A stretch of 49,628 nucleotides of DNA from Escherichia phage JMPW1. A program made the position numbers and the translations under genes. The stretch lies in sequence record NC_041874.1; one strand, 5' to 3'. The notes beneath the pieces were generated by a model that saw only the letters and a list, made by a program, of their open reading frames with translations, was not told the origin of the DNA and searched no databases. Shown here in pieces: positions 2,627-39,358 of this stretch; the stretch's first letter is position 1, and each line of letters starts with the position of its first letter.

Positions 2627-2818
2627 ATGGCTGATTTTATGCACCAAATGATTGCAGTATTCAAAGGTAGTGATGACCAGGAGGTGAAAGAGTGCTTTAC
2701 TGTAGACAAGCCTTATAGCGCATCGCTAACCAGCTTCGGGAATATCTCATTGCTTGATGATAACGGCGACCCCTGGGTATTCGACGAAGACACTGATTGC
2801 TTCGAAATTAAAGAATAG
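2627..2818 (+). CDS. hypothetical acidic protein (63 aa)
   Basis: ORF track; D/E-rich; TAG stop lies inside next palindrome. Confidence 0.5.
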   Translation: MADFMHQMIAVFKGSDDQEVKECFTVDKPYSASLTSFGNISLLDDNGDPWVFDEDTDCFEIKE

Positions 2819-2858
2819 CACTTTTTGTTAAAACTCAATATCGGGGTTGCGCTATAGT
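2816..2858 (+). promoter_or_regulatory. palindrome-promoter cassette
   Basis: TAGCActtttTGTTA, 22 nt, TATAGT 2853-2858; hairpin GGGGTT/AACCCC. Confidence 0.55.
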
Positions 2859-2889
2859 AACCCCATCGACAACAAACGAGGACACTAAC

Positions 2890-3378
2890 ATGAAAATCAA
2901 ATTGCTTTGCACTGGCGGTTACAAGGGCTTTACTCGCGACCTGGAAGCGGATCCTATCGTGATTGATGCGGTGAAGTGTGATGATAGCCTCGGCGGCTAC
3001 CGCGTGAAGGTTGACGACCTGGTGAAAGCTGGCGTGTACGATCTGGGCTATGGACTTTCGGTTAGCCCGGTAGTTGGTCCGGCAGACTTCAACGAGAAGG
3101 ATGGAACGATGTTCTTCTTCGAATGGGAAGTCCAGGCAAATCCTAAGCCGCGCAAGGTTCGTCTTCTCAGTAATGGCGGCTACCCGATGCGTCCAGGTTA
3201 TGAGAATCGCACATTCCCGGTTATCGTTGACTTTGAAGAAATCACCGCACACTTAGCTTATATCAACGGTGAACAGCTTCATGCTGTTGGATTCGTGGGA
3301 TGTATGAATCAAGAGGCGCTATGCTTCTTCCATTGTAAAGCCGAGCCGTTCGATATTGAGTGCGAGTTAGTATACTAA
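2890..3378 (+). CDS. hypothetical protein with internal tandem duplication (162 aa)
   Basis: Follows cassette 2816-2858. Repeats KIKLLCTGGYKGF...PIVIDAV and KVRLLSNGGYPMRPGY...PVIVDFE. Confidence 0.6.
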   Translation: MKIKLLCTGGYKGFTRDLEADPIVIDAVKCDDSLGGYRVKVDDLVKAGVYDLGYGLSVSPVVGPADFNEKDGTMFFFEWEVQANPKPRKVRLLSNGGYPMRPGYENRTFPVIVDFEEITAHLAYINGEQLHAVGFVGCMNQEALCFFHCKAEPFDIECELVY

Positions 3379-3419
3379 GCACGAATTGTTAAAAGGGGAT
3401 TTGGCCTGACTGGTATAAT
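3377..3419 (+). promoter_or_regulatory. palindrome-promoter cassette
   Basis: AAGCAcgaatTGTTA, 22 nt, TGgTATAAT 3414-3419; hairpin GGGGATT/AATCCCC. Confidence 0.55.
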
Positions 3420-3449
3420 CCCCGCATAAACCACTAAGAGGAAAGCATC

Positions 3450-3956
3450 ATGTTAAAATTAGAAGACGTAAAATTCCCGATTAAATTTATCAGCCTAGGT
3501 TGCGGTGAAATTACATTCACCAGTGAAGATAAAGGCAAGTGGGACAATGATAAAATGTCTCAGCTTAAGTTGGATTGGTTTATCAATCGGCACAATGAAG
3601 TAAATCCTGAAAACTCAGCCAAGAAGGATTACCATTACATTATTAGTGGTAGTCAGGATGCGTACGAAAAGTATGATGGTTGGAAAATTGTTCGATCAAT
3701 CTTCCACCCCGCAAAGCCAGAAATTAAACCGATGTTACAATGCGCTCAGATCGAGAACATTCCATTGAGCGCGACGCTAAAAGGAGTGCAGCTTGATGAT
3801 AAATCCTGGCTTGAAATAACCGCCACGCCGAAAACTATTGAAGTGCACGACGATATCGTCACTCTTCTATTGCATTACGGCAGCTTTAAGCACAAAGCGG
3901 TATCAGGTGAAATCAGCATTAAGCGCGGAACACTTGTGCGCTATGAGGTGAAATAA
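3450..3956 (+). CDS. hypothetical early protein (168 aa)
   Basis: Follows cassette 3377-3419; AAGAGGAAAGCATC-ATG. Confidence 0.6.
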   Translation: MLKLEDVKFPIKFISLGCGEITFTSEDKGKWDNDKMSQLKLDWFINRHNEVNPENSAKKDYHYIISGSQDAYEKYDGWKIVRSIFHPAKPEIKPMLQCAQIENIPLSATLKGVQLDDKSWLEITATPKTIEVHDDIVTLLLHYGSFKHKAVSGEISIKRGTLVRYEVK

Positions 3957-4030
3957 TGGCTGCATGGGTTTTGATTATCTTAATGAGTACCGGGCCGGAT
4001 CACGTATACATGGAAAGTCAGCAATCATGA
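3956..4030 (+). CDS. possible 24-aa micro-ORF
   Basis: TAATG overlap with upstream stop; MAAWVLIILMSTGPDHVYMESQQS; very short, so weak. Confidence 0.2.
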   Translation: MAAWVLIILMSTGPDHVYMESQQS

Positions 4031-4102
4031 AACAAGGTACGGGAAGTAATTGCAGAGAATAAGCCGTTCGGATATGAAGTAAAAACGATGTGCGTTAAAC
4101 GA

Positions 4103-4145
4103 TAGCACGAATTGCTAAACCTTCCGCAAGGCCATTTGATATAGT
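4103..4145 (+). promoter_or_regulatory. palindrome-promoter cassette
   Basis: TAGCAcgaatTGCTA, 22 nt, TGaTATAGT 4140-4145; hairpin AAGGCCA/TGGCCTT. Confidence 0.6.
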
Positions 4146-4185
4146 GGCCTTATTGAAGCAAGGCAACCAATCAGAGGAATCAGCT

Positions 4186-4392
4186 ATGGCTACACGACTA
4201 ACTCAGTGGCAGATTTACGACAAGGCCTCACGCCTTCGTGAATCGCTTCGCGGACTGACGCCGAATGACCGAATGGAGATTATCGGGCACGCATTGCACG
4301 AACTAACATCTCAGGACGTAATCTATCATTCATGCGGCAATAAATTCTGGAACGTGACATTCGAGGTAAAGAAAGATGAGCAAAACTCATAA
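4186..4392 (+). CDS. hypothetical early protein (68 aa)
   Basis: ATG after conserved leader AACCAATCAGAGGAATCAGCT. The GTG 4144 start in the ORF track lies inside the -10 element. Confidence 0.5.
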   Translation: MATRLTQWQIYDKASRLRESLRGLTPNDRMEIIGHALHELTSQDVIYHSCGNKFWNVTFEVKKDEQNS

Positions 4393-4663
4393 GTTAAAAA
4401 TCGCCCCGATACATTTCATTGGTGTAATGAACGGAACCAAAACGGCAGAGTTCCGCATCAATGACCGCAACTTCCAGGTTGGTGATATCCTTGAGCTACG
4501 CGAGTTCGATCGTGACGACTTTACCGGGTGGGAAGTTCACGCCAGGGTGTCCGATGTTACAGACGTGACGCCATACATCAATCGCGGTTATGACGAGCAA
4601 GAATGCGACTTCACGCAATACGTGATGTTATCAATCAAGCCTTACAGGAAGGTTAGACCATGA
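4376..4663 (+). CDS. DUF3850 / ASCH (PUA-like) domain protein
   Basis: HKLKIAPIHFIGVMNGTKTAEFRINDRNFQVGDILELREF matches my memory of the DUF3850 N-terminal signature. Confidence 0.6.
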   Translation: MSKTHKLKIAPIHFIGVMNGTKTAEFRINDRNFQVGDILELREFDRDDFTGWEVHARVSDVTDVTPYINRGYDEQECDFTQYVMLSIKPYRKVRP

Positions 4664-5298
4664 AATTTGAGTGCGTATCAAGTAGCGGATCTGGTTTTAA
4701 GTGGGGAAAAACTTACAAAGGTGTTCGCGTAAATGATGACAGCTTCATCATTACTGATGAGAACGGTTGCAACGTGAACGTTGTACGGCGTCACGAATAT
4801 CAGGAAATTTTCCTGCCTTATGGCGGTAGCTCAAAATATATCTTCCATCGAATCGTGGATGGTGTTAAATTTAACGACGTAATCGAAGCAATCAACCAAC
4901 TGCATAATAAAGAGGTAAAATTTATGAAATTCGAATGTATCAGCGACAACACTAAAAAATTTACCGTTGGAAAAATTTACAACGTTCCTTCTGAGCACGC
5001 TAAGCACACTTTAGCGCTGACCGACGACACAGGCTGCCAACGCATTGCAACCGTGACGCACAATGGCGAAGGTCTTCGCTGGAACAGCGGCGGCACTAAG
5101 TTCGCAACTTTCGGTAAGAAGCGCAAGCGCAATTTCCGCGTCAACGGCAAGATCAACACCAGCAAGATTAGCAACGTCAAGCCTATTAATGTTGACCACA
5201 AGCCAGAGCTTGATCTTAAAGGCAAGGTGGATATTCCTGATATGGCTTTAGCGATCCTTATTCTTGTTGCTCTAATTTCTATCATGCTCATCATGTAA
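4660..5298 (+). CDS. membrane-anchored protein with two tandem MKFEC mini-domains
   Basis: Repeat 1 starts MKFECVSSSGSGFKWGKTY and repeat 2 MKFECISDNTKKFTVGKIY. Repeat 2 keeps its own AAGAGG-ATG at 4909-4926. C-terminal TM helix MALAILILVALISIMLIM. Confidence 0.6.
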   Translation: MKFECVSSSGSGFKWGKTYKGVRVNDDSFIITDENGCNVNVVRRHEYQEIFLPYGGSSKYIFHRIVDGVKFNDVIEAINQLHNKEVKFMKFECISDNTKKFTVGKIYNVPSEHAKHTLALTDDTGCQRIATVTHNGEGLRWNSGGTKFATFGKKRKRNFRVNGKINTSKISNVKPINVDHKPELDLKGKVDIPDMALAILILVALISIMLIM

Positions 5299-5305
5299 TT
5301 TTAAC

Positions 5306-5339
5306 GGGGAATTGGCTCTGAGCGGTTCCCCTTTCTTTT
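5306..5339 (+). terminator. intrinsic terminator fused to SD
   Basis: GGGGAA...TTCCCC stem then TTTCTTTTGGAG. Confidence 0.55.
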
Positions 5340-5351
5340 GGAGAAAACACT

Positions 5352-5462
5352 ATGCCAGACTTTTCTAACTGGAATAACGAGCCGCCATCATTTCAGGAGT
5401 TGCTATTCTGCCTCCTGGTCCTGACATTATCTCTTAAGGGTGTTTTATGGCTACTATCATAA
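5352..5462 (+). CDS. possible 36-aa membrane peptide
   Basis: GGAG SD fused to terminator T-run; MPDFSNWNNEPPSFQELLFCLLVLTLSLKGVLWLLS; overlaps next gene by 16 nt. Confidence 0.3.
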   Translation: MPDFSNWNNEPPSFQELLFCLLVLTLSLKGVLWLLS

Positions 5463-5665
5463 CAGCAGAAGATGCAGCACGCGACGCAGTGGAAGGAATG
5501 CGCCCAAATACCTCCAGAATAGCACACTACTACAAATCTGAGGTGTCGGCAGTGCAATTGGTCAACGAAATTTTAAGGCTACCACAAGTCGATTCAGCGC
5601 GCGTGGTGACGTGCTTAAAAAATTATTTTTGCATCGCTATTAAAACGAATAGCACGAATTGCTAA
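5447..5665 (+). CDS. hypothetical early protein (72 aa)
   Basis: ORF track; stop lies in palindrome 5650-5664. Confidence 0.45.
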   Translation: MATIITAEDAARDAVEGMRPNTSRIAHYYKSEVSAVQLVNEILRLPQVDSARVVTCLKNYFCIAIKTNSTNC

Positions 5666-5692
5666 AACCTATCAAGGGGAATGCGCTATGAT
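5650..5692 (+). promoter_or_regulatory. palindrome-promoter cassette
   Basis: TAGCAcgaatTGCTA, 22 nt, TATGAT 5687-5692; hairpin GGGAAT/ATTCCC. Confidence 0.5.
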
Positions 5693-5722
5693 TCCCATGC
5701 ACCAACAAACGAGGAAGCACTC

Positions 5723-6169
5723 ATGAAACACTTAATTTGCATTGAAACGCCTAACGACCAGTACACCCTGCACGGCATTGGAATGTTCAAAGGTCACTAC
5801 ATGACAGCAAGTATTCATGATTCGCGTTGCGTCAATGGCGATCTGATGATTACGTCAAAAGAAGTAACTCCGTACATTATGCAGAATCTTGGCAATAACG
5901 AATATATGGCCTACGGATGCAATGCGGTGTACAAGCATATCAAGATCAGAAAACGCGTTGTTCGCGCATTCAAGAAAATTGCAATGAAACAATGGAAGAT
6001 GAGCAAGAAAGATGCTGGACGCTGGGCGCGTAACGTTGCAGATTCATACTTCTACCGTAACGGTGAGTCCTGCCACTTCCTTATCGATGAACTTATGGAA
6101 AACTACGGCGGCGACTTCAGTCAGGGTGGCTTTGACGCTTGGGCTGACTACGAGGTCGATTACTGGTAA
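5723..6169 (+). CDS. hypothetical early protein (148 aa)
   Basis: ATG after ACGAGGAAGCACTC. The 5681 start in the ORF track overlaps the -10 hexamer TATGAT 5687-5692. Confidence 0.55.
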   Translation: MKHLICIETPNDQYTLHGIGMFKGHYMTASIHDSRCVNGDLMITSKEVTPYIMQNLGNNEYMAYGCNAVYKHIKIRKRVVRAFKKIAMKQWKMSKKDAGRWARNVADSYFYRNGESCHFLIDELMENYGGDFSQGGFDAWADYEVDYW

Positions 6170-6212
6170 TAGCACGAATTGCTAAAACTTGCTCAAGGGC
6201 ATTTGATAGAAT
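6170..6212 (+). promoter_or_regulatory. palindrome-promoter cassette
   Basis: TAGCAcgaatTGCTA, 22 nt, TGaTAGAAT 6207-6212; hairpin AAGGGCAT/ATGCCCTT. Confidence 0.6.
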
Positions 6213-6252
6213 GCCCTTCGTTGAGTTAAGCAACCAATCAGAGGAATAAATC

Positions 6253-6864
6253 ATGGATAAAATTACCATTTGGGGCCAGACAATCAACCTGTTTCTCGGC
6301 ACGCGCCGCGTAGCAATCTTTGACTTTGATGGAACACTTAGCGATGGATCTGGTCGACTTCACCTGCTACCTACAAAGGATTTGCACTTAACTGAAAGCT
6401 GGTCCGAGTTTAACCGCGCGGCAATATTTGACAACCCTATCCAAAGCACGATCGATGTGATGAACTCTATGTATGCCGCTGGTCATCATGTGATCATTTT
6501 AACCGGGCGAAGTGATGAGGTGCGTTACGCATCTGAGTTGTGGCTTAAGCATCACGGCGCTCGATATGATTACCTGATTATGCGACCATACACCGATAAC
6601 CGGAAAGACACAGTAATGAAAGAAGAGGCGGTGCGCGCGATCGGCATTGATAACATTCTGGCGGCCTGGGATGACTCACCGCAAATTATTCCATTATTCC
6701 GCTCACTTGGAATAACCACTTACGCTGTAGTTGACTATGGCGATAAAGTTCACGATCATTTAAAATCTCACGGGGTAGATGAGGTTTGCAATCATGAACC
6801 ATCTGAGCCGCTACCGCCATTTGGTGAGAAAATTTGCATTAAGTGCAAGGAGTTATTGAAGTGA
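6253..6864 (+). CDS. HAD-family polynucleotide 3'-phosphatase-like protein (T4 Pnkp C-terminal-domain type)
   Basis: DFDGTL motif I, ILTGR motif, RKDTVMKEEAV and WDDSPQIIPLFRSLGI. These resemble T4 Pnkp phosphatase-domain blocks (RKDDVVKEE, IDDRTQVVEMW) as I remember them. Confidence 0.75.
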   Translation: MDKITIWGQTINLFLGTRRVAIFDFDGTLSDGSGRLHLLPTKDLHLTESWSEFNRAAIFDNPIQSTIDVMNSMYAAGHHVIILTGRSDEVRYASELWLKHHGARYDYLIMRPYTDNRKDTVMKEEAVRAIGIDNILAAWDDSPQIIPLFRSLGITTYAVVDYGDKVHDHLKSHGVDEVCNHEPSEPLPPFGEKICIKCKELLK

Positions 6865-6971
6865 ACCTATACGAATTTATTGCAGCACATCCGGTACTAA
6901 CAGTTATCATTCTGTTAATCATAAACTCCACCATCATCAATGTGGCGAAATTATTTTTAGGGAGATACTGA
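6861..6971 (+). CDS. possible 36-aa membrane peptide
   Basis: GTGA overlap with upstream stop; MNLYEFIAAHPVLTVIILLIINSTIINVAKLFLGRY; its stop lies 1 nt before the next ATG. Confidence 0.3.
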   Translation: MNLYEFIAAHPVLTVIILLIINSTIINVAKLFLGRY

Positions 6972-6972
6972 C

Positions 6973-7545
6973 ATGAAAACAGCTATCATTTTAAACGGTG
7001 CGCCTGGCGCGGGAAAAGACACTATAGGGTGCATCCTGGCTGACACTTACGATCATGTAGCGCTACGCAGCTTTAAAGCTCCAATGTTTGAGATTGCCCG
7101 AGCAATCCTGGGTGAGACTAATTTTGAGTATTTCATGTTCTTGTATGAGGACCGTCGCTATAAAGAAGAGCCAGCATCAATCCTGAACGGTAAAAGCCCG
7201 CGCCAGTTTATGATCTGGATTAGCGAGGAGGTTATCAAGCCGCAGTTCGGAAATCGCTTCTTCGGTATGCGAGCGGAAAGCAAGGTGAAAGAGTCTCACT
7301 CCCTTTCGGTATTTACTGACGGTGGATTCAAAGACGAAATCTTGCAGATGATTGAAGGTGAAATCCAGGTCAAGCTATGTCGAATCCATCGCAACGGTTG
7401 CAACTTTGACAACGACAGTCGCGACTACATCTATCTTGACGATATGATCGGGGTCAACGGTTATCAGGAATGTGACTTCTTCTCTGTCGAAGGTCATCCA
7501 GAAATTACCGCTCAGCACATAGCCGCCACGTTCATCAACAAATAG
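6973..7545 (+). CDS. P-loop kinase of the phage dNMP-kinase family
   Basis: Walker A GAPGAGKDT; LNGKSP and SPRQFMIWISEE blocks resemble T4 gp1 dNMP kinase (GKDT, LNGKSP). Confidence 0.7.
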   Translation: MKTAIILNGAPGAGKDTIGCILADTYDHVALRSFKAPMFEIARAILGETNFEYFMFLYEDRRYKEEPASILNGKSPRQFMIWISEEVIKPQFGNRFFGMRAESKVKESHSLSVFTDGGFKDEILQMIEGEIQVKLCRIHRNGCNFDNDSRDYIYLDDMIGVNGYQECDFFSVEGHPEITAQHIAATFINK

Positions 7546-9330: not shown

Positions 9331-9354
9331 AACCCGCTTCGGCGGGTTTTTTTA
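9331..9354 (+). terminator. intrinsic terminator (end of early region)
   Basis: ACCCGC ttcg GCGGGT followed by TTTTTTT. Confidence 0.8.
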
Positions 9355-9365
9355 TGCCTGCAATA

Positions 9366-9388
9366 TGGTAAAATAGCACTAAATGTTA
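9366..9388 (+). promoter_or_regulatory. extended -10 promoter overlapped by palindrome (terS)
   Basis: TGgTAAAAT (9366-9374); its last T is the first base of TAGCActaaaTGTTA (9374-9388), 18 nt before the terS ATG. Confidence 0.45.
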
Positions 9389-14754: not shown

Positions 14755-15231
14755 ATGGCACAAATTAATGCATCTTATCAGCGAGATATGGCGATTGCGC
14801 TTCCGGGTATGGTTGCGGATACTTCAAAGTACAATATTGACGGCGCTTGTGTCGTTAATGAAGGTGATGTTCTTGTTGGCGCTGCCGTACAAGTTGTTCA
14901 AGCTCAGGCGGTTGATGGTCATAAGTTGGTTAAGGCTCTTACTACCGGAACCACTCCTTACGGCGTGGCAATCCGATCTCACTGGCAGACTGTTAACGCT
15001 CAAAATCAGATGATTTACGAAGATGGCGGCGCTATCAACGTGATGACTTCAGGCCGAGTATGGATGCTTTCCAAATCCACCGAAGCACCAACTTTCGGCT
15101 CTGCCGTTAAACTTGATGTTGATGGTCAGGAAAAATCTGATGGCACGATCGAAACAACCTGGACCTACGCTGGCGGTTGGACTAAATACAAAGATATTCA
15201 GCTTGTTGAGGTTCAGTTGCATCAACTGTAA
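14755..15231 (+). CDS. capsid decoration / cement protein paralog 1
   Basis: Upstream of major capsid; N-terminus ALPGMVADTSKYNIDGACVV is paralogous to the next gene. Confidence 0.55.
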   Translation: MAQINASYQRDMAIALPGMVADTSKYNIDGACVVNEGDVLVGAAVQVVQAQAVDGHKLVKALTTGTTPYGVAIRSHWQTVNAQNQMIYEDGGAINVMTSGRVWMLSKSTEAPTFGSAVKLDVDGQEKSDGTIETTWTYAGGWTKYKDIQLVEVQLHQL

Positions 15232-15245
15232 TTAGCGTTTAATAT

Positions 15246-15280
15246 GGGGACTATCTTTTTTTTGGATAGTCCTTTTTTTA
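15246..15280 (+). terminator. terminator-like hairpin fused to SD
   Basis: GGACTATC ... GATAGTCC then TTTTTTTATGGAG. Confidence 0.6.
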
Positions 15281-15293
15281 TGGAGAAATCATT

Positions 15294-16061
15294 ATGGCTT
15301 ACGAAAATTTGTTCTTGCGCCCCGCGTGTCCGGGAAATATTTCTGATACTTCAACCTACAATATTGATGGAGCTTGTGTGGCTCAAGGTGACATTGGGTT
15401 CGGCTCAGCGGTTCAGGTTGTAGGCATCGTTGACGGTGTAAAAGTTGTGGCGGCGCTTCCTGATGGTGGAACTCCTTACGGTATCGCTTTCCGTTCCCAA
15501 TATGAACACCTGAGCGGTAAAATCCTTGACGGTGAAGTGTGCAACGTCGTTTCTCACGGTCGCGTATGGACTCTTACTTCTCTTGGTGAGGCTCCCAGCT
15601 TGTTCTCAAAGTTACAGTTTGGGTCTGGTGGAGTTGTTACTGGTGGATCTGGTTCCGCAGGTTGGACATTTGCGGGTGGCTTTGTTAAGCATGAAGATGG
15701 CTACATCATTGAGGTTCAGGTGAAACAAAATGCTTTCATCGCTCCACCGCCACCGCCCCCTGTCGTTCTTGTTGAATCTGCTACAATCGCCACTGACAAG
15801 GAAAGCCCTCAACCAAACAATGTTACGATCCAGTGTGTAGCTAATGCTCTTCCGGATAATGCAACCGATAAGACTGGTAAATGGTCAATCGACGCTACCA
15901 ATATCGCCACTGTCGATCCGGACTCAGGTCTTGTAACTCCTGTTGGTGGAGAGGTAGTCGGTGATTTCAATATTACCTGGACGGCTAACGATGCCAGCAA
16001 GACGACGGCAACTATTGCTTATCGCGTAGAAGCAGTGCCAACGCCAGAGGTTGATGCATAA
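15294..16061 (+). CDS. capsid decoration paralog 2 with poly-Pro linker and Ig-like C-terminal domain
   Basis: ACPGNISDTSTYNIDGACVA paralogous to 14755 gene; APPPPPPVV linker; Big_2-like C-terminus (NVTIQCVANALPDNATDKTGKWS). Confidence 0.6.
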   Translation: MAYENLFLRPACPGNISDTSTYNIDGACVAQGDIGFGSAVQVVGIVDGVKVVAALPDGGTPYGIAFRSQYEHLSGKILDGEVCNVVSHGRVWTLTSLGEAPSLFSKLQFGSGGVVTGGSGSAGWTFAGGFVKHEDGYIIEVQVKQNAFIAPPPPPPVVLVESATIATDKESPQPNNVTIQCVANALPDNATDKTGKWSIDATNIATVDPDSGLVTPVGGEVVGDFNITWTANDASKTTATIAYRVEAVPTPEVDA

Positions 16062-16073
16062 CATAAAAACACT

Positions 16074-16101
16074 TTGACGCTTTAACAAAAAGTGCTATTA
16101 T
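16074..16101 (+). promoter_or_regulatory. promoter candidate with palindrome in the spacer (capsid gene)
   Basis: TTGACG (16074-16079), 16 nt, TATTAT (16096-16101). TAACAaaaagTGCTA (16083-16097) fills the spacer and -10. A terminator-like hairpin follows, so function is uncertain. Confidence 0.3.
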
Positions 16102-16103
16102 TG

Positions 16104-16132
16104 AAGCCGTGAACATAATCACGGCTTTTTTA
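16104..16132 (+). terminator. terminator-like hairpin upstream of capsid gene
   Basis: GCCGTG aacataat CACGGC then TTTTTTATT. Confidence 0.6.
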
Positions 16133-16152
16133 TTAACTACGGAGAAGTAATC

Positions 16153-17112
16153 ATGACTACTAAAAAATTTGATGAAGCAGATAAAAGCAATGTTGAAATG
16201 TATCTGATCCAGGCTGGCGTAAAACAGGATGCAGCCGCAACGATGGGTATCTGGACCGCTCAGGAACTACACCGCATCAAGAGTCAGTCCTATGAAGAAG
16301 ACTACCCGGTCGGCTCCGCTCTACGAGTATTCCCGGTTACAACCGAACTCTCTCCGACCGACAAGACGTTTGAGTACATGACCTTTGATAAGGTTGGTAC
16401 TGCTCAGATTATCGCTGACTATACCGATGACCTGCCTCTGGTTGATGCACTTGGTACTTCTGAATTTGGTAAGGTGTTCCGTTTGGGTAACGCGTATCTG
16501 ATCTCAATCGACGAAATCAAAGCAGGTCAGGCAACTGGTCGCCCACTGTCAACCCGTAAGGCGAGCGCGTGCCAGTTGGCGCATGATCAGCTTGTTAACC
16601 GCCTGGTGTTCAAAGGTTCCGCACCGCACAAGATTGTGTCCGTGTTTAACCATCCGAACATCACTAAAATTACCTCCGGTAAGTGGATTGATGCATCTAC
16701 TATGAAGCCGGAAACTGCGGAAGCTGAGCTAACTCAAGCGATCGAAACCATCGAGACGATTACTCGGGGTCAGCACCGCGCAACCAACATCCTGATCCCG
16801 CCTTCCATGCGTAAGGTTTTGGCGATTCGTATGCCTGAGACAACCATGTCTTATCTGGACTATTTTAAGTCTCAGAACTCCGGTATCGAAATCGACTCTA
16901 TCGCAGAGCTTGAGGATATTGACGGCGCAGGCACCAAAGGCGTACTGGTGTACGAAAAGAATCCGATGAACATGTCCATCGAGATCCCGGAAGCATTTAA
17001 TATGCTGCCAGCACAACCGAAAGACTTGCACTTTAAAGTGCCTTGCACTTCTAAGTGTACTGGTCTTACAATTTATCGCCCGATGACTATTGTCTTAATC
17101 ACTGGCGTGTAA
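16153..17112 (+). CDS. major capsid protein
   Basis: 319 aa, strong SD, position; sequence resembles T1-family major capsid (DUF2184-type) from memory. Confidence 0.85.
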   Translation: MTTKKFDEADKSNVEMYLIQAGVKQDAAATMGIWTAQELHRIKSQSYEEDYPVGSALRVFPVTTELSPTDKTFEYMTFDKVGTAQIIADYTDDLPLVDALGTSEFGKVFRLGNAYLISIDEIKAGQATGRPLSTRKASACQLAHDQLVNRLVFKGSAPHKIVSVFNHPNITKITSGKWIDASTMKPETAEAELTQAIETIETITRGQHRATNILIPPSMRKVLAIRMPETTMSYLDYFKSQNSGIEIDSIAELEDIDGAGTKGVLVYEKNPMNMSIEIPEAFNMLPAQPKDLHFKVPCTSKCTGLTIYRPMTIVLITGV

Positions 17113-17119
17113 TATTATA

Positions 17120-17147
17120 GGGGCTAACTTAGTTAGTCCCTTTTTTA
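17120..17147 (+). terminator. terminator after capsid gene, fused to SD
   Basis: GGGGCTAAC tta GTTAGTCCC then TTTTTTATTGGAG. Confidence 0.65.
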
Positions 17148-17161
17148 TTGGAGAAATCAAA

Positions 17162-17449
17162 ATGGCTAAAGAAAAAACTGTTGTTATCGTAAACGTTGGT
17201 GTAGCTCTTCAGATGTTCCGTCTTGAAGATGGTTCCTTTGCTAAAGTTCTTCCAGATGAAGAGGTCACGCTTCCGGCGTCCGTTCTTGATTTGCCTGGCC
17301 TGCGTTGCTTAATTGCTCGCGAAGAAATCGAAGTTAAAGACGACAGTGCAACCAACCGCAAAATCCGCGCTGAAATGGCAAAGATCACTAAGCCAGATCC
17401 GTGGGATAGCAAAAGCGTTAAAGAGCTTGAGGACGGCGGCGAATATTAA
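17162..17449 (+). CDS. hypothetical head-associated protein (95 aa)
   Basis: Terminator-SD junction TTTTTTATTGGAGAAATCAAA-ATG; directly after capsid gene. Confidence 0.5.
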   Translation: MAKEKTVVIVNVGVALQMFRLEDGSFAKVLPDEEVTLPASVLDLPGLRCLIAREEIEVKDDSATNRKIRAEMAKITKPDPWDSKSVKELEDGGEY

Positions 17450-17456
17450 TCATCAA

Positions 17457-17481
17457 GGCGCTCATGTAGCGCCTTTTTTTA
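17457..17481 (+). terminator. terminator-like hairpin fused to SD
   Basis: GGCGCT catgt AGCGCC then TTTTTTTATGGGGG. Confidence 0.65.
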
Positions 17482-17492
17482 TGGGGGTAATT

Positions 17493-17903
17493 ATGAATCA
17501 AGAAACTTTAATTGCAGCTGTTGAGCAAATGCGAAAGCTGGTTCCGGCACTTCGTAAGGTTCCAGACGAAACGCTTTATGCGTGGGTAGAAATGGCTGAG
17601 CTTTTTGTATGCCAGAAGACCTTTAAAGACGCATACGTCAAAGCGATCGCTCTTTATGCATTACACCTTGCTTTCCTTGATGGGGCGCTAAAAGGTGAAG
17701 ATGAGGATCTGGAATCGTACTCACGCCGCGTTACGTCATTCTCACTGAGCGGTGAATTTAGCCAGACTTTCGGAGAGGTTACGAAGAACCAGTCAGGGAA
17801 CATGATGCTTTCTACGCCGTGGGGTAAGATGTTCGAACAGCTTAAAGCGAGACGCCGTGGTAGATTCGCATTAATGACAGGACTCCGTGGAGGATGCCAC
17901 TAA
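17493..17903 (+). CDS. head-tail connector (adaptor) protein
   Basis: GGGGG SD then ATG 17493 just after terminator 17457-17481. Position and size fit a gp6-type adaptor. The 17313 start in the ORF track crosses the terminator. Confidence 0.55.
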   Translation: MNQETLIAAVEQMRKLVPALRKVPDETLYAWVEMAELFVCQKTFKDAYVKAIALYALHLAFLDGALKGEDEDLESYSRRVTSFSLSGEFSQTFGEVTKNQSGNMMLSTPWGKMFEQLKARRRGRFALMTGLRGGCH

Positions 17904-18274
17904 TGAACTACTCACAGATTGAAAGAATGGCTCGCAAAGGCGTGGCTTTCTTCACCGATCCGTCAAGACCTATGAACCTGATAAAACAAGGTGAATACGG
18001 ATATGATGAAAACGGATTCGAGATCCCACCGATGGAACAGGTTATTCCAATATCCGGCGCGACGAGAAGACCGAACGCGCGTGAGATTGACGGGGAAACT
18101 ATCCGCGCCTCAGATATTTTGGGGATCTTCAATAATGATCATGAAATAAACGAAGGTGACTATATAGAGATTGATGGCATTCGTCATGTTGTCGTTGATG
18201 CTCGCCCGGTTCAGGCGTCACTGGAACCAGTTGCCTATCGTCCAGTGTTGCGGAGGGTATCAGTCGGTGGCTAA
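17903..18274 (+). CDS. head closure / head-tail joining protein
   Basis: TAATG overlap; GTGGAGG SD 9 nt upstream; position. Confidence 0.5.
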   Translation: MNYSQIERMARKGVAFFTDPSRPMNLIKQGEYGYDENGFEIPPMEQVIPISGATRRPNAREIDGETIRASDILGIFNNDHEINEGDYIEIDGIRHVVVDARPVQASLEPVAYRPVLRRVSVGG

Positions 18275-18710
18275 TTATCAGATTCGTAGATTTCAAGGCG
18301 AGATTGATGCGTGGATTAAGGCAGCTGAAAGCACGTTAGAACATGCCATTGAGATATTCGTAAGGGATGTTCACGACGCTCTTGTTAGCCGCTCCCCTGT
18401 TGATACAGGTCGATTCAAGGGTAACTGGCAGATAACTTTTAACGAAATCCCTAACCACGCATTAAACCGATACGATAAAACTGGCAGTGTCGTAAGAGGT
18501 GAGGAGCAGGCCAAAACTTATGGCATGTTCAGCCGTGGCGGCGCGATAACATCAGTTCACTTTTCAAACATGTTGATTTATGCAAACGCTCTTGAGTACG
18601 GTCATTCACAGCAAGCACCGAGCGGAGTTGTCGGTCTTGTGGCATTAAGGCTGAGATCATATATGGCTGACGCAATCAAGCAGGCAAGGAGACAGCAAAA
18701 TGCACTATGA
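18266..18710 (+). CDS. HK97 gp10-like neck/tail component
   Basis: GTG start with GGAGGG SD 8 nt upstream; SPVDTGRFKGNWQ motif typical of the HK97 gp10 family. Confidence 0.6.
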
Positions 18711-19098
18711 GTTATCAGCGGCGGCGCGAGCCGCTTTTCTATCAAAGTACAGAGACTTTCCTCACTACATGGAAAACAGAAATTTCACACCTCCTAAGGA
18801 TGGCGGCATGTGGCTGAGGTTCAACTACATTGAGGGGGATACGCTTTATCTATCCATTGACAGAAAGTGTAAATCTTACATCGCAATCGTTCAGATCGGC
18901 GTAGTGTTCCCTCCAGGCTCCGGCGTTGACGAAGCAAGATTGAAGGCAAAAGAGATTGCTGATTTTTTCAAAGATGGTAAAATGCTTAACGTTGGTTATA
19001 TTTTCGAGGGTGCAATCGTGCATCAAATTGTTAAACATGAAAGCGGGTGGATGATTCCGGTTCGCTTTACAGTACGAGTAGACACAAAGGAGACTTAA
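18700..19098 (+). CDS. tail completion / tail terminator protein
   Basis: Immediately precedes major tail gene; 132 aa. Confidence 0.5.
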   Translation: MHYELSAAARAAFLSKYRDFPHYMENRNFTPPKDGGMWLRFNYIEGDTLYLSIDRKCKSYIAIVQIGVVFPPGSGVDEARLKAKEIADFFKDGKMLNVGYIFEGAIVHQIVKHESGWMIPVRFTVRVDTKET

Positions 19099-19099
19099 T

Positions 19100-19768
19100 A
19101 TGCACTTACCAAATGGCGCGCAAATTTTCGTGGAAACCTCTCGCGGAGAAGAGATAGAGGCGACCGCTGTCACTAACGAAAAAAATCCTGTTGCTACAGT
19201 TGCATCTAAAGGTGACTTAGTAAAAGGTGATTACGTTATTGTAACTCAGTCAACTTGGGCTAAGATGGTTAGTCGAGTACTAATTGTTACTGACGCTCAG
19301 GAAACAAGTATTACTCTTGCTGGAATTGACACTACTGATACTCTTGTTTTCCCGGCTGGCGGTACAATGAGCTTTGCAAAAGTTACTGGTTGGACTGAGA
19401 TCCCTTGCGTACAGGAGATTGGTCAGGACGGCGGCGAGCAGCAGTATTACACTTATCAGTGTTTGTCCGACGATAAAGAACAGCAGATCCCTACGTTTAA
19501 ATCTGCAATCTCGCTAACGTACACCTTCGCGCACGAATTTGATAACCCTATCTATCCTATTCTGCGTAAGCTGGATTCTTCTGGTCAGGTAACTGCGGTT
19601 CGGATGTATGTTCCAAAAGCGAACGAGATGCGCATGTGGGCTGGTATCTTGTCTTTTAACGACATTCCGTCTACGCAAGTAAACGAAATGGAAACGGTAC
19701 AACTAGCCGTATCCCTGAAAGGTGACTTTACTTTCATCTCATCCACTCTGGCATCGCCTGGTGCTTAA
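19100..19768 (+). CDS. major tail (tube) protein
   Basis: 222 aa, position between terminator protein and G/GT chaperone, followed by hairpin 19781-19806. Confidence 0.8.
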   Translation: MHLPNGAQIFVETSRGEEIEATAVTNEKNPVATVASKGDLVKGDYVIVTQSTWAKMVSRVLIVTDAQETSITLAGIDTTDTLVFPAGGTMSFAKVTGWTEIPCVQEIGQDGGEQQYYTYQCLSDDKEQQIPTFKSAISLTYTFAHEFDNPIYPILRKLDSSGQVTAVRMYVPKANEMRMWAGILSFNDIPSTQVNEMETVQLAVSLKGDFTFISSTLASPGA

Positions 19769-19780
19769 ATACCATCCATA

Positions 19781-19806
19781 GGGGGCTTGCGCCCCCTTAT
19801 TCATTT
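19781..19806 (+). terminator. hairpin after major tail gene (weak T-run)
   Basis: GGGGGC ttgc GCCCCC then TTATTCATTT. Confidence 0.45.
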
Positions 19807-19844
19807 CTGTAAAATCATCCTATCAACTCTATTCACTTAACTTT

Positions 19845-19859
19845 TAACAAAAAGTGCTA
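19845..19859. promoter_or_regulatory. palindrome TAACAaaaagTGCTA upstream of tail chaperone gene
   Basis: Consensus flanks are in minus orientation, 22 nt from TGaTAGGAT on the minus strand. On the plus strand it abuts the leader CAACCAATCAGGAG. Confidence 0.4.
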
Positions 19860-19881
19860 TCAACCAATCAGGAGAAACATC

Positions 19882-20199
19882 ATGGCTAAATTCAATTTCG
19901 TGTTGGGCCAGCTTCCAGACTTCAAACTTCCGGTGACGTTCACCATGCCAAACGGCGAGGATGCAACTATTATTTTTACAGTGCGCCACCTTTCCAGTAA
20001 AGAAGTGCAAGATATGTATGCGAAGCAGGGCGAAATGAATGATAGCGATTTCATCACTAAGATCGCGTCAGGCTGGAATCTGGAAGAAGAATTTAACGAA
20101 GAGAATACGCGTAAACTGGTACAGTATTATCCTTCCGCAGCGTACAACCTGACGGCAACTTACATCAAGGCGCTTGCCGGACACCGCGCAAAAAACTAA
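19882..20199 (+). CDS. tail assembly chaperone (gpG analogue)
   Basis: Position before tape measure; ends ...GCA AAA AAC TAA with a slippery heptamer. Confidence 0.75.
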   Translation: MAKFNFVLGQLPDFKLPVTFTMPNGEDATIIFTVRHLSSKEVQDMYAKQGEMNDSDFITKIASGWNLEEEFNEENTRKLVQYYPSAAYNLTATYIKALAGHRAKN

Positions 20200-20516
20200 A
20201 AAGGGCGGTTTATCTGTTATATCAGAAACCGCCGACAGAAGAGCAATTACGATCGGTTGGCCTCAGTCTTTCTGACTATGAAGACGAGGAACCGGAAACG
20301 ATAATCGGCGATACTGAAATGGTGAAGGCGTGGAATGTTTTTACGTCAATGCTCACTCAGTGGAGAAGTTCAGGCGCTGGAGCTTATGGTCTTGACTATA
20401 ATGTTTTGCCTATGTTGTTCAAAATCTATAAAATAGAAGATGAAGAACTGGCATTGCAGGACGTTAGAATCATGGAAGCGAAAGCGCTTGAAATGGTTGC
20501 TAAGCAAAACAACTAA
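19882..20516 (+). CDS. tail assembly chaperone frameshift product (gpGT analogue, -1 shift at 20190-20196)
   Basis: The -1 frame is open from the slip site through the ORF-track ORF 20319-20516, which ends just before the tape measure gene. Confidence 0.6.
20190..20196 (+). other. -1 programmed ribosomal frameshift slippery heptamer A_AAA_AAC
   Basis: In phase (GCA AAA AAC TAA) one codon before the chaperone stop; the -1 frame stays open to 20516. Confidence 0.65.
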
Positions 20517-20538
20517 GCCGCCGTTTGGCGGTTTTTTC
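20517..20538 (+). terminator. terminator-like hairpin before tape measure
   Basis: GCCGCC gttt GGCGG then TTTTTTCG. Confidence 0.55.
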
Positions 20539-20554
20539 GTATATAGGGGGTTAT

Positions 20555-23428
20555 ATGGTTGATAAGGTAGCAGGTCTGTCGCTTGACGTTGATGTGTCAA
20601 CAGTGCAGCGCGCCGTCAAGTCACTGAAAGAGTTTTCAAAGGCCAACGACCAGGCCGCTGATTCTATGGGTTCTTTAATCAATGAGTCAGAGGTTGCAAA
20701 ACAGAAGGCCAAAGAACACGCTGAACAACTAAGGCGCCAGAGAAAAGAGTATGAGGCCGTGGAGAAGGCAATCGATCCTACAGTATCAAAAATGGAAAGG
20801 TTGAAGATTGCATCTCAGCAGCTTGATAAACTCTGGCAGCAGGGAGTCGTTCCAGATGAGACGTTTTTCCGTTTGGGTGAAATGCTGGATCTGCAAAACG
20901 CAAAACTTGCTCGCAGCCGGGCTATGCTTACGGAAGAAGGTCAGGCGGCATTGCAGGAAGCGAAAGCAAAAGAGCAGGCGGCAGCACGAAGCAAGGCGTT
21001 CATGGATGCCCTGAATGGTCAAGTTAACGCGATCGGCAAGACTCATGCTGAATTGATGGAACTGAAAGCGGCTGAGCTTGGTTTATCGAAAGAAGCAGCA
21101 CCACTAATCGCAAAACTTAAAGATCAAGGCCGAGCTATGAATGCAGCAGGTATTAGCGCCGGGGAATACAGGCAAGCAATGCGAATGCTTCCTGCACAGA
21201 TTACCGACGTCGTTACATCTCTTGCGTCCGGCATGCCAGTTTGGATGGTTGCCATCCAGCAAGGCGGTCAAATCAAGGACTCGTTCGGCGGGATTGGTAA
21301 TACGTTTAAAGTGTTGCTGAGTTATATTAATCCAGTCACAGCAGGTATTGGCGTTCTTGTTGGTTCGTTAGGTCTTCTGGCGAAAGCTGGTTATGACTCT
21401 TACAAGTCAATAACTGATATTCAGAATGCGCTTATTGAGACTGGCGGTTATGCAGGTGTTACGGCTGAAGATCTTGATTCAGTGTCTAAAAAGATCGCGC
21501 AGACAAGTAACTCAACCATTGGGAGTATTCGCGAGATTGTAACGGAGTTGGCAAGTTCTGGTAAGTACACCCGCGAGCAGATCCAGAACATCACTAAGGC
21601 TACCGCAGAGTGGTCAGCGTCAACAGGAAAATCAGCAAGTCAAATTATTTCTGAGTTCGACAAAATCGCAAGCGATCCGGTAAAAGGTCTGAAGAAGTTA
21701 AATGAGCAATATAATTTCCTTGAAAAAGGGCAGCTTACCTATATCGATACATTAAGCCGGACGAAAGGAGAAACTGAGGCAGTATCTGAAGCAACGAAAT
21801 TATTCGCCGACGTAATGGAAAAGCGAATGAAGTCAATAGCGGATAATGCTACCCCTCTGGAAAAAATGTGGAACGATATTAAACAATGGGCTTCGGACGC
21901 GTGGGGATGGGTGGGTGATCATACACTTGGGGCGCTAAACCTGATTATTGATGTGGTTCAGGGTACAGTGATTCAGGTAAAAATGATTCTTGCGAAAGGT
22001 GACGAATACATCTCAAACTTTATTGCCTCTGCGATTAAGGCTACACAGTCTCTTCCTGGTATGAGTGATTTCGGCGCTGATGTACTGAAGGAGCAGGAGA
22101 ATATTGTAAAAAGTTCTCGCGACAACTACGATCAGTTATCTTCAGAGCTTGACGCTATTAACGCTCGTGTAGAAAAAGGAGAGATGGGATACATTGAAGC
22201 AATGAGGCAGCGTCGCACTCTTGAAAAGCAGTACAGCGAGGAAACTAAGGAGGCAATAAGGAAAGAAGCAGAAGAGATCGAGAAGCGAAACCGAGAACGA
22301 AATAAGCAGTCGAAAATTGTACGCTCACCGACAGAGCAATTCGACAAGGAGTTAATTTCACTCAAGGCTCAACTTAAGGTATTGCAGGAGCACAAGGAGA
22401 TCGGGCAAAAACTTTCCGCACAGAGAAAGGCGTTGTTTACAACTGAGGCTACGATCGCTGTTCTTCGCGAAGCCAGCTCTAAGCGTCAGTTGTCTGCGGA
22501 AGAAAAAGCGTTGCTGGCAAGTCAGGAGAGAGTTATTGAGCTTGCAAAACAGAAGGCCGAGATTGGCGATCAGATTGTTAAGCAACAACAGTTGAATGAT
22601 CTTACCGATAAATCTCTGAAGTTTGTCAATGAGATGACGGCGGCGACAGAACAGCTTAACGCGTCACGCGGTCTTAGCACGCGCGAAATGGAACGACAAG
22701 CGGAACTGGCTAAAATAACCACTGATTACATCAACTCTGGAGGTAGTGAGGGAGACGAAAAACTCCAGAACATGATTAAGGCGCAAAATGATTACTACGC
22801 TGCGGAAGATGCCAAGCGTGCTGACTGGTTAGCTGGTGCTGAAAGTGCTTTTGCTGATTACGGTGATGCAGCAATGGATATGTACGGCAATGTTAACGAT
22901 ATCGCGTCAAGTGCACTTAACGGAATGTCAGATATGATGGTTCAATTTCTGACCACAGGAAAAGCGAACTTTGAGGACTTTGCGAAAAATATCATCGGCA
23001 TGATTATAAAGATGATTGCTCAGATGGTAATCTTCAATACGATCTCAGGCATGATGGGCGGTAAGACGTGGAGCTTTGCTGGAGGGGCGTCGTCTGGTGC
23101 TTCTGCGGCATCACAGGCAACCCCTACACCTGCCGCTTCTGTTTTTAGATCTGCATCATCCGGCGGGGCCGCTGTATCACTTGCTGCCGCAGCGGGTAGC
23201 GTGGCAACCTCTGGATTCAACGCATCAAACTCGGCGCCAAAGGCGATAAACCATTCAGGAGGTGGAACGGTAGTTGATGTTAGTGGAATGGAGGTGAGAG
23301 TTGACAACGGCTCAGATCCGAGGGGGATTTCTCAGGGTGTAGAAATGATGTTCAAAAAGATGATTCGCGAGTCTTGTTCGCAGGGCGGCGAGGTTTATAA
23401 TTACATTCAGGAAAAAACAGGAGGCTAA
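20555..23428 (+). CDS. tape measure protein
   Basis: About 957 aa, coiled-coil rich, hydrophobic Gly/Ala segments; AGGGGG SD before ATG 20555. The 20525 start in the ORF track lies in a terminator. Confidence 0.9.
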
Positions 23429-25810: not shown

Positions 25811-25836
25811 AACCCGCCTTGCGCGGGTTTTTTTTC
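25811..25836 (+). terminator. intrinsic terminator after gpI-like gene
   Basis: ACCCGC cttgc GCGGGT then TTTTTTTT; its 16-mer CCCGCCTTGCGCGGGT recurs at 23801-23816. Confidence 0.75.
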
Positions 25837-25883
25837 GCCTGTATAATGAGTCCACCGATAAATAGCACAAAAAGGTAAACATC

Positions 25884-36340: not shown

Positions 36341-36793
36341 TTAACTAAAAATGCTATTGGTCGTTCCGATATCTTCCTTCTTCACGACGCGCATAAATTT
36401 CTTGTTCTTGCATCGCTTCTCAAGGCACTTGCCGTTACCGTCAAACTTCAGGTCGAATCGCAACCATGCGGCACGAAATCCTTTGCACCCCTGTCGGCGG
36501 TAAGCGCGATGCGCAGCTTCAGCGCCTTGCCATGAAATCATATTTCGATCTTTCCAGCCTTGCACCGTCTGATTGCTAACTTTTAGAGCCTTTGCGCAGG
36601 CCGCAGGGCCGCCGTAATATTCGATAAGAGCATCAAGTCGCGCTCGCAGTCCGGCGCGTGTTTCTTCTTTATGAATATAGAACCCGCAACGCTGTCGAGG
36701 CTTTTTATCTTTACCGCGCCGTGTTCCGTTGTTACCATTGATGTGACGTTTATCGATTTTACCAGTTGATTCTGCGATACGTTGAATACTCAT
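36341..36793 (-). CDS. HTH DNA-binding protein (Cro/YdaS-like) with basic N-terminus
   Basis: ACAKALKVSNQTVQGWKDRNMIS helix-turn-helix; divergent from helicase gene across palindrome 36807-36821; followed by terminator. Confidence 0.6.
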   Translation of the reverse strand: MSIQRIAESTGKIDKRHINGNNGTRRGKDKKPRQRCGFYIHKEETRAGLRARLDALIEYYGGPAACAKALKVSNQTVQGWKDRNMISWQGAEAAHRAYRRQGCKGFRAAWLRFDLKFDGNGKCLEKRCKNKKFMRVVKKEDIGTTNSIFS

Positions 36794-36806: not shown

Positions 36807-36849
36807 TAGCACTTTTTGCTAAAAACGTTTACTTTATGCCGTGTATTAT
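36807..36849 (+). promoter_or_regulatory. palindrome-promoter cassette (helicase); shared divergent region with HTH gene
   Basis: TAGCActtttTGCTA, 22 nt, TATTAT 36844-36849. Confidence 0.5.
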
Positions 36850-38905: not shown

Positions 38906-39318
38906 TTACAGACAAAGGTGATTATTTAGAGTTTTACGAGCGAGATCCCAGCGACACTCGAAAGGAGGACGCTCATCAGGTGGATTGTGTGTCCTGGCTG
39001 AAATACAATTTCCCTCACCTTCTATTTTGGCACACTGTCAATGAAGGTGAAAAAACAATCACATCAGCGCTCAGGGATGAGCAGGCCGGATTACTTAAAG
39101 GAGTGTCGGACTTCGTTATCCTGATTGGTGTTAACTCAAGATACCCGTTTGCAGCAATCGAACTTAAGCGGGTTAATAAGTCAGGCAAAGGAAAGGCGTC
39201 ACCAGTCAGCGACAAGCAAAGGGAATTTCTCAGAAAGGTCATGGAGCGTGGCGGCTTCTCTGCCGTCGCATACGGATTTGAGCAATTCAAGATCGCAATT
39301 TACGAAATGATGAAATAG
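38902..39318 (+). CDS. VRR-NUC domain nuclease
   Basis: GVSDFVIL...AAIELKR...SDKQREFL matches the D..ExK..Q VRR-NUC pattern; ATGA overlap with helicase. Confidence 0.8.
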   Translation: MITDKGDYLEFYERDPSDTRKEDAHQVDCVSWLKYNFPHLLFWHTVNEGEKTITSALRDEQAGLLKGVSDFVILIGVNSRYPFAAIELKRVNKSGKGKASPVSDKQREFLRKVMERGGFSAVAYGFEQFKIAIYEMMK

Positions 39319-39358
39319 CACTTTTTGTTAAAACTGCCGGAATGGAATCTGGCATTAT
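39316..39358 (+). promoter_or_regulatory. palindrome-promoter cassette (dam)
   Basis: TAGCActtttTGTTA, 22 nt, TGgCATTAT 39353-39358. Confidence 0.5.

Follow-up and report, generated by a model that had tools for sequence, protein, structure and literature searches.

The window analysed here, 49,628 nucleotides of DNA from Escherichia phage JMPW1 (NC_041874.1), is that of a T1-like coliphage: over the 5.1 kb that we compared (15200-20300), it shows 100% identity to Escherichia phage phi2013 and 96% identity to phage T1. This text concerns a 15-nt repeat that lies in two gaps between late genes of this phage. The first gap (16061-16153) extends from the stop codon of the gene for an Ig-domain decoration protein (16061) to the major capsid protein gene (16153..17112), and the second (19768-19882) from the stop codon of the major tail gene (19768) to the tape-measure chaperone gene (19882..20199), which is the first gene of the following unit. 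The gene names are those of the T1 annotation, and all of these genes lie on the plus strand. The 15-mer TAACAAAAAGTGCTA is found in exact form on the plus strand at 16083-16097 (hereafter site 1) and at 19845-19859 (site 2), just where an earlier note on this DNA had placed it, and the minus-strand reading of both copies is TAGCACTTTTTGTTA. Both are reversed relative to transcription, and they end 56 nt (site 1) and 23 nt (site 2) before the start codons. The note had described the copies as palindromes located at the two most highly expressed late genes. However, the symmetry of the 15-mer is imperfect: it is a pseudo-palindrome, TAACA-N5-TGCTA, whose centre is asymmetric (the consensus of the repeat family is TAGCA-N5-TGYTA). 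Moreover, the gene that follows site 2, the tape-measure chaperone gene, does not belong to the two late genes with the highest expression, and the major tail gene is on the upstream side of this site.

Both 15-mers are reversed copies of the 21-nt "direct repeat" published for the Drexlerviridae, the consensus of which, aaATAGCACnnnTTGnTAAAA, is matched by TAATAGCACTTTTTGTTAAAGC at site 1 and by TGATAGCACTTTTTGTTAAAAG at site 2. In a scan with a position weight matrix built from clear copies, which finds about 24 copies of the repeat in the window, site 1 scores 32.2 and site 2 31.0, as compared to 36.0 for the best copy. The 15-mer pattern with at most three mismatches occurs 18 times in the window, versus 1.95 occurrences expected from shuffles. 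The repeat is said to have been noted already in the T1 genome paper, without a function, and our literature search on the motif string returned nothing useful. For phage TLS, 18 intergenic copies, DR1-DR18, have been described (German, Kropinski et al. 2024, PMC11447400), which are oriented as the genes are transcribed and precede start codons by about 76 nt; according to the same authors, the repeat is also present in T1, Rtp and Rogue1, and stoperator, enhancer or UP-element are suggested as its roles. Sites 1 and 2 are intergenic like these copies and share their consensus, but neither of them lies in the direction of transcription at such a distance from a start codon. Among the copies in the TLS table, DR7 is given on the negative strand; it is next to terminator T35, at a position that is homologous to site 1, and this reversed copy is not discussed in PMC11447400. 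In our window, most of the remaining copies are co-directional with the gene that they precede, though sites 1 and 2 are not the only reversed ones; further reversed copies are found at 35265-35279 and in the leader of the regulator gene pir (36807-36821).

T1-type phages control the order of their gene expression with the host RNA polymerase alone. The motif family, the annotation of a capsid promoter and the dual activity of the regulator Pir were already published. What is new here is the positional reading of the repeat, the conserved core of a putative leftward promoter at site 2, promoter modules that are embedded in terminators, and a proposed link between the motif and Pir. Repeat copies are now placed relative to core promoter elements and linked to the activator and repressor behaviour of Pir, and the two reversed late copies appear as conserved parts of two different promoter modules. 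Operators that lie within promoters and divergent promoters that overlap are both well known in principle; T1-like phages are common contaminants as well as candidates for therapy, and defined late promoters together with a regulator may be of some practical use.

For the conservation analysis, we fetched 62 loci around homologues of the capsid gene (57-100% protein identity). Counts for site 1 refer to 49 distinct homologous contexts and counts for site 2 to 25, and the conservation stacks comprise 38 and 23 distinct sequences, respectively. The evidence for promoters at both late sites consists of sequence, geometry and conservation, and all promoters and starts given for them are predictions.

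The repeat copy upstream of the capsid gene

The plus strand at site 1 carries a sigma-70-type promoter for the major capsid protein gene (P_MCP, 16074..16101), which is composed of TTGACG (16074-79), a 16-nt spacer and TGcTATTAT (16093-16101), with a start at about 16108. It is the best sigma-70-like match between 14500 and 21000 (10/12 matches plus the TG), and the same 28 nt are annotated as a promoter, followed by a terminator, in the GenBank entry of T1 (AY216660, 15062..15089). The repeat (16083..16097, minus strand) occupies positions -25 to -11 of P_MCP; that it fills the spacer of TTGACG-16-TATTAT had been observed before and is borne out here.

A repeat directly 5' of the capsid gene, always in the reversed orientation, is present in nearly all of the 62 fetched loci and in a total of 58 loci including the window, and the plus-strand pattern TTGnnn-16/17-TAnnnT is retained in 49/49 distinct relatives. 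The five variants of the -35 (TTGCAC, TTGACG, TTGAAC, TTGACC and TTGCTG) and the four variants of the -10 (TATCAT, TATTAT, TATATT and TATTCT) are all consensus-like. A TG, which is supplied by the repeat's own TGCTA, always precedes the -10, and in three relatives a 1-nt insertion retains TATCAT but spoils the last base of the repeat. The possibility of a non-functional inverted copy in decay is excluded by the conservation.

The earlier note had proposed that both reversed copies are antisense promoters, from which transcription would run into the decoration gene and the major tail gene at their 3' ends. The minus-strand geometry on which this was based is correct for this genome: TTGTTA is followed after 22 nt by TGtTATGCA at site 1 and by TGaTAGGAT at site 2, such that both copies display the order repeat, 22 nt, TGnTAnnnn. 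This geometry equals that of the co-directional copies. Among the 17 co-directional copies of the window, 14 have a TAnnnT -10 (for example TATAGT, TATGAT or TATTAT) at 22-23 nt downstream of the repeat, the three exceptions being CATTAT, CATAGT and CATAAT, and no -35 is found at the proper distance from it. With the -10 at 22-23 nt, the repeat spans about -49 to -35 and is centred at -42, which is the class II activator position known from CRP/FNR-type and lambda CI/PRM promoters. At site 1, however, the minus-strand hexamer fits TAnnnT in just two of the 49 distinct relatives; the T at -7 is otherwise absent, and hexamers such as TATGCA, TATACA, TATGCG and TAGCAC are found instead. Furthermore, the TGnTA of the minus strand is accounted for by a conserved element of the plus strand, TAACA(T/C)AAAAA (16059-16069), which lies upstream of the -35 of P_MCP and is highly conserved in the stack of 38 sequences. 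From this comparison, and with the plus-strand promoter kept throughout, we conclude that site 1 is not an antisense promoter, but a strong predicted promoter for the capsid gene on the plus strand, in which the repeat covers -25 to -11. That both sites are antisense promoters is very unlikely, even though the geometry is conserved at site 2, and a tempting reading of the capsid-proximal copy is hereby corrected. The antisense starts that had been given, near 16033 and 19795, are also about 15 nt off, since the quoted -10 sequences imply starts at about 16048 and 19810.

The conserved element upstream of the -35 of P_MCP coincides largely with an A-tract, AACATAAAAACAC (16060..16072, plus strand), which covers about -48 to -36 of the promoter and shares bases with the decoration gene's stop codon. 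Its position makes it probably a proximal UP element. The TAACA/A-tract element also resembles half of the repeat, from a full copy of which it is 24 bp away, and it may be an extra half-site.

P_MCP is followed by a hairpin with a T-run (16103..16134, plus strand) that was identified by the terminator scan, and a terminator is annotated here in T1 as well. The hairpin starts 2-3 nt past the -10, and compensatory changes are seen in 6 of its 10 pairs (13 relatives). In read-through RNA, it is a strong terminator (-19 kcal/mol), as compared to a stem of only 5 bp in RNA that begins at 16108. Since the predicted start of P_MCP lies inside the 5' arm, the full terminator would only form in RNA that reads through from the decoration gene, and P_MCP transcripts would thus be insulated from upstream transcription.

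A site between the -35 and the -10 of a strong promoter, with a terminator directly after it and in a late region that is rich in terminators (according to the terminator scan and the T1 annotation), brings to mind the Q-binding element of lambda. The site 1 repeat might accordingly serve a factor that loads onto the polymerase and renders it resistant to the late-region terminators, with CATAAT at +7 to +12 as a possible sigma-dependent pause signal. We consider this extremely unlikely, because no Q-like protein is annotated in T1, the pause-like CATAAT is not conserved in the relatives, and the same repeat is found elsewhere at -42 or in leaders. Also, with the predicted start of P_MCP already inside the terminator stem, antitermination would not be needed there. 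The same CATAAT was rejected as a rightward -10 at the distance of 22 nt past site 1, as it lies at 16 nt, in the loop of the hairpin, and lacks conservation.

The repeat copy upstream of the tape-measure chaperone gene

At site 2, elements of two predicted promoters lie on opposite strands. The intrinsic terminator of the major tail gene (19780..19797, plus strand) carries TTGCGC in its loop, and this hexamer (19787-92) forms, together with TAAAAT (19810-15) at a distance of 17 nt, a putative rightward promoter within the terminator (19787..19815), with a start at about 19822. This conserved promoter with its -35 in a terminator loop had been missed in the earlier note. On the minus strand, TGaTAGGAT (19817..19825) is a putative extended -10, 22 nt away from the repeat (19845..19859), from which transcription would start leftward at about 19810. 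With respect to the leftward promoter, the repeat would hence span -49 to -35, and in the rightward leader it would take up +24 to +38; it adjoins the leader sequence CAACCAATCAGGAG, as had been stated before.

The site 2 repeat is found in 30 loci including the window (75-100% capsid-protein identity), always in one and the same orientation, and is absent from TLS-like genomes. In the stack of 23 sequences, the terminator with its TTGCGC loop and a T-run are followed on the right by CTGTAnAATCA, which is invariant. Next come three bases that vary, a TA that is again invariant, YCAA with moderate conservation, a stretch of about 15 bases that vary, and the repeat. The rightward TTGCGC-17-TAAAAT/TAGAAT/TACAAT (TTGnnn-17-TAnAAT) is present in 24 of the 25 distinct relatives. 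The leftward TAnnnT is present in all 25, in the form of nine different hexamers, and is preceded by TGn in 22 of them; there is no variation at -12, -11 and -7, whereas the three positions in between vary. The spacer between the repeat and the leftward -10 varies in sequence but is always 22 nt long, a distance as in the co-directional copies. Relatives that lack the site 2 repeat have kept the rightward promoter with a short leader, and the leftward -10 is absent from them. The rightward modules at TerS and at the tail fibre gene are likewise without a leftward element, and the co-directional copies have a C, not a T, at the -1 base that creates the TA at site 2. The proposal of antisense promoters, which fell for site 1, is thus supported by comparison for site 2, where a leftward promoter is plausible. 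It would overlap with the rightward promoter, and the two would be mutually exclusive: their predicted starts are about 12 bp apart and divergent, so that RNA polymerase could only occupy one of them at a time.

It could be argued that site 2 is merely an operator or roadblock in the rightward leader, that the leftward -10 is a by-product of conserved bases at the rightward start site, and that there is no antisense RNA. Indeed, the CTGTAnAATCA block and the TA at -1/+1 belong to the rightward promoter core, ATCAAC at the predicted start is similar to the ATCRAM leader that follows the co-directional -10, the module has no indels, and no gene or conserved terminator is found on the minus strand past site 2. 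However, a TA followed by three variable bases and a T is the very profile of a minus-strand -10. The C at the matching position of the co-directional copies, the 22-nt distance that site 2 has in common with them and the fact that the element is missing where the repeat is missing, though the rightward promoter is kept, also speak against this alternative, which we regard as a minor possibility.

A role of the site 2 repeat at the DNA level is favoured by the leader RNA, which shows no structure beyond that of shuffles (z = 0.13); an RNA-level role of the repeat was rejected on this ground. Also rejected was a plus-strand promoter formed by the repeat's own TGCTAT, because the hexamer would be TATCAA, and the relatives lack a T at -7 as well.

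The rightward promoter at site 2 is one of three late modules in which the loop of an intrinsic terminator contains a -35-like TTGCGC or TTCGGC, and a -10 that is preceded by cCTG follows at exactly 17 nt. The other two are located at TerS (9338-9366, plus strand, TTCGGC-17-CAATAT) and at the tail fibre gene (25819-25847, plus strand, TTGCGC-17-TATAAT). In all three, termination of the upstream unit overlaps with initiation of the next, which fits the 'transcripton' idea that is reportedly found in the T1 genome paper.

Pir as a candidate regulator acting on the repeat

The gene pir (T1 orf23; 36341..36793, minus strand; T1 annotation) encodes a Cro/C2-like helix-turn-helix (HTH) regulator with a weak Pfam match to P22_Cro. 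Homologues were found by tblastn in 823 phage records, which are dominated by phages of Klebsiella, Escherichia, Shigella and Salmonella, i.e., the same host genera that dominate the matches to the capsid region; a locus search with the single Pir sequence returned close relatives only. A second regulator, Orf65, has no Pfam match, and the two are not paralogues (BLASTP E = 2.2). In reporter assays with green fluorescent protein, Pir (Orf23) acts as an activator on Pdam and Phol and as a repressor on PrecE and the pir promoter itself, and Orf65 represses Ppir and activates its own promoter, which is Pir-independent (Laganenka et al. 2019). In the same study, the response of Pdam and Ppir is obtained with Pir supplied from a plasmid, in E. 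coli that is not infected.

Two of these promoters suggest a link between Pir and the repeat. The copy upstream of dam (39316..39330, plus strand), whose 15-mer is identical to those of sites 1 and 2, covers -49 to -35 of the Pir-activated Pdam and is centred at -42. The copy between pir and the helicase gene (36807..36821, plus strand) covers -49 to -35 of the helicase promoter, which has a -10 TATTAT (36844-49, plus strand) and is of the repeat-dependent type. At the same time, the leader of the Pir-repressed pir promoter contains it at +18 to +32, reversed relative to pir; this promoter is a sigma-70 promoter on the minus strand, TTGAAT-17-TATAAT, with a start at about 36838. The two promoters share their -10 region, with the -10 hexamers overlapping at an offset of 1 bp (TATTATA), and this layout is kept in TLS (P57 and DR11), the Webervirus KOX1 and the Rogunavirus AHP42. 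In the arrangement of its elements, the divergent pir/helicase pair is of the same design as site 2.

By their central bases, the copies of the repeat fall into three classes, TTT, GAA and TAA. The TTT class includes both late sites, Pdam and Ppir, while most copies of the left arm (1795 to 7543), with that of the orf65 promoter among them, belong to the GAA class, and the copies at 9374, 35265, 40339 and 42327 to the TAA class. In the orf65 promoter, the repeat has the co-directional arrangement. The published reporter data hint at different target classes for Pir and Orf65.

We read the repeat as a pseudo-palindromic operator, TAGCA-N5-TGYTA, of a dimeric phage HTH regulator, the likeliest candidate for which is Pir. 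The suggestion that the motif is a regulator site was already made in the earlier note; it is reasonable and fits with the Pir reporter data (Laganenka et al. 2019). We lean towards the view that both late sites are operators of the Pir type that gate two late promoters. The effect of such an operator would depend on its position, with activation from -42 and interference from within or just downstream of sigma-70 promoters. In the co-directional copies, the operator would take the class II activator position upstream of a -10 that has no -35. At site 1, a bound protein and sigma-70 would be competitors for the extended -10 of P_MCP, and gating of the capsid promoter, in its simplest form repression, would be expected from such competition. 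At site 2, the operator, the 22-nt spacer and TGnTAnnnT would make up the core of a leftward promoter of the activated type. The regulator would divert polymerase leftward, and rightward initiation of the chaperone/tape-measure unit would drop, as proposed for pir/helicase. The leftward transcript would be short and complementary to the major tail transcript at its 3' end, and it would be either a by-product or an accessory.

Several points weigh against Pir-type gating of the two late promoters. The Pir binding site is not defined in Laganenka et al. 2019, and our literature search found no transcriptome of a T1-like phage; promoters as well as binding at both sites are predicted. Pir activates the late holin promoter, which is a poor fit with simple repression of the capsid promoter. 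We searched two further Pir-responsive promoters, the activated Phol and the repressed PrecE, and found no clear repeat, though there is one half-site in PrecE. The orf65 promoter has a repeat of the GAA class yet is Pir-independent, which indicates that the binding protein may differ between classes. With regard to site 2, the 72-nt module from the terminator loop to the repeat is free of indels, such that the constant 22-nt spacing is not uniquely diagnostic, and the invariant CTGTAnAATCA could serve the rightward promoter alone.

The repeat might also be something other than a Pir operator: it might work in the manner of an UP element or an enhancer, or a host protein such as Lrp might bind to it. 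The UP-element, enhancer and stoperator roles were put forward by the TLS authors (PMC11447400). The Lrp consensus YAGHAWATTWTDCTR, a string that is in use in the Lrp literature, matches TAGCACTTTTTGCTA (the TGCTA form) at 13/15 positions and the 15-mer of the two sites at 12/15, as counted by eye. Furthermore, many of the repeat promoters precede apparent early genes, which would call for a factor that is already present at infection. Against this stands the response of Pdam and Ppir to plasmid-borne Pir in the uninfected host, and an UP element could not act from within a spacer, as at site 1, or from downstream of a start, as at Ppir, site 2 and 35265. The symmetry of the TAGCA/TGCTA half-sites, too, suggests a dimeric HTH protein, and we deem a UP-like or host-factor site improbable.

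An extension of the Pir operator reading is a family-wide operator code that is read by two regulators, with Pir reading the copies with a TTT centre and Orf65 those with a GAA centre, such that site 2 and pir/helicase would be switches of promoter direction and site 1 a case of occlusion. This is speculative, and we consider it improbable. If it did, a bound regulator would flip polymerase from a constitutive sigma-70 promoter to an overlapping promoter on the opposite strand, which would provide timing of terminator-insulated late units in a phage that has neither a polymerase nor a sigma factor of its own.

Known systems and further observations

A close parallel to the proposed operators is lambda CI, which at OR activates PRM from about -42 while repressing PR. 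In the present case, one type of operator lies at about -42 of promoters without a -35 and also within or downstream of consensus sigma-70 promoters, and an autoregulated regulator gene with published dual activity sits in a divergent promoter region. In contrast to lambda, where operators form cooperative triplets, those proposed here are single, with about 24 copies distributed across a genome of the virulent type, and binding by Pir is a prediction.

Overlapping divergent, or bidirectional, bacterial promoters with a common -10 region were reportedly described by Warman and co-workers in 2021. The pir/helicase pair, with its overlapping -10 sequences, is comparable to these, and so is site 2, where the -10 sequences are adjacent and the predicted starts divergent. 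The difference is that here one partner would need an upstream operator, while the other uses a -35 (in the terminator loop in the case of site 2), and that the leftward partner at site 2 has no gene. Antisense promoters inside late or regulatory operons of phages are known from lambda paQ and P22 sar. Site 2 would resemble them in yielding a short transcript complementary to the end of a late gene, but competition between promoters is a likelier mode of action there than RNA pairing, the transcript being a predicted one.

Promoters for other sigma factors were considered for the repeat and rejected. The sigma-54 consensus is TGGCAC-N5-TTGCW, whereas the repeat reads TAGCAC-N3-TTGYTA, i.e., the first G of the GG is absent and the spacing is 2 nt short. 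A sigma-32 reading of the repeat together with its downstream leader was ruled out on spacing, and the same applies to sigma-54 in that arrangement. In an Rfam scan of 15000-21000 (E<=1), neither site gave a match. Two sub-threshold SraG-like matches were obtained elsewhere on the minus strand (17116-17228 and 17452-17537; 29 and 25 bits, as compared to a gathering score of 50); both overlap terminators 3' of the capsid gene and are probably due to chance.

In co-directional promoters, the -10 lies inside a covarying inverted repeat, which is followed by a conserved leader, ATCRAMAACGAG. The arms pair as GGGATAAC/GTTATCCC, GGGGTA/TACCCC, GGGGTT/AACCCC, GGGATG/CATCCC or GGGGAAT/ATTCCCC, and examples are found at 1071-1110, 1810-1850, 2831-2870 and 48045-48089 (minus strand) of the window as well as at 4364-4400 of T1. 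Because the predicted start lies past the 3' arm, the hairpin would only be present in read-through RNA, and the inverted repeat could be a processing site or a feature at the DNA level. On their minus strands, neither of the two late sites has such an inverted repeat around the -10, the leader ATCRAMAACGAG or a plausible downstream gene.

Another leader sequence, ACCAATCAGGAG or ACCAATCAGAGGA, recurs directly before several start codons. It occurs at 19864-19875 and also past the repeats at 1795, 4103, 6170, 46458 and 49528, and could be a shared ribosome-binding or translation-enhancer sequence.

The reversed copy at 35265-35279, TAGCACTAATTGCTA, lies at about +2 to +16 of a minus-strand promoter, TTGCAA-17-TAAAAT (35315-35287), upstream of a gene for 615 aa (33396-35243) that is homologous to T1 orf26, and may be another case of an operator in a promoter. 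Finally, an orphan copy near the left end of the window (106-120, minus strand) faces leftward and lacks a -10 at the customary distance of 22-23 nt; it is located about 59 bp upstream of a sigma-70-like promoter on the plus strand, TTGTCA-17-TAGAAT (137-172), with a predicted start at about 172.

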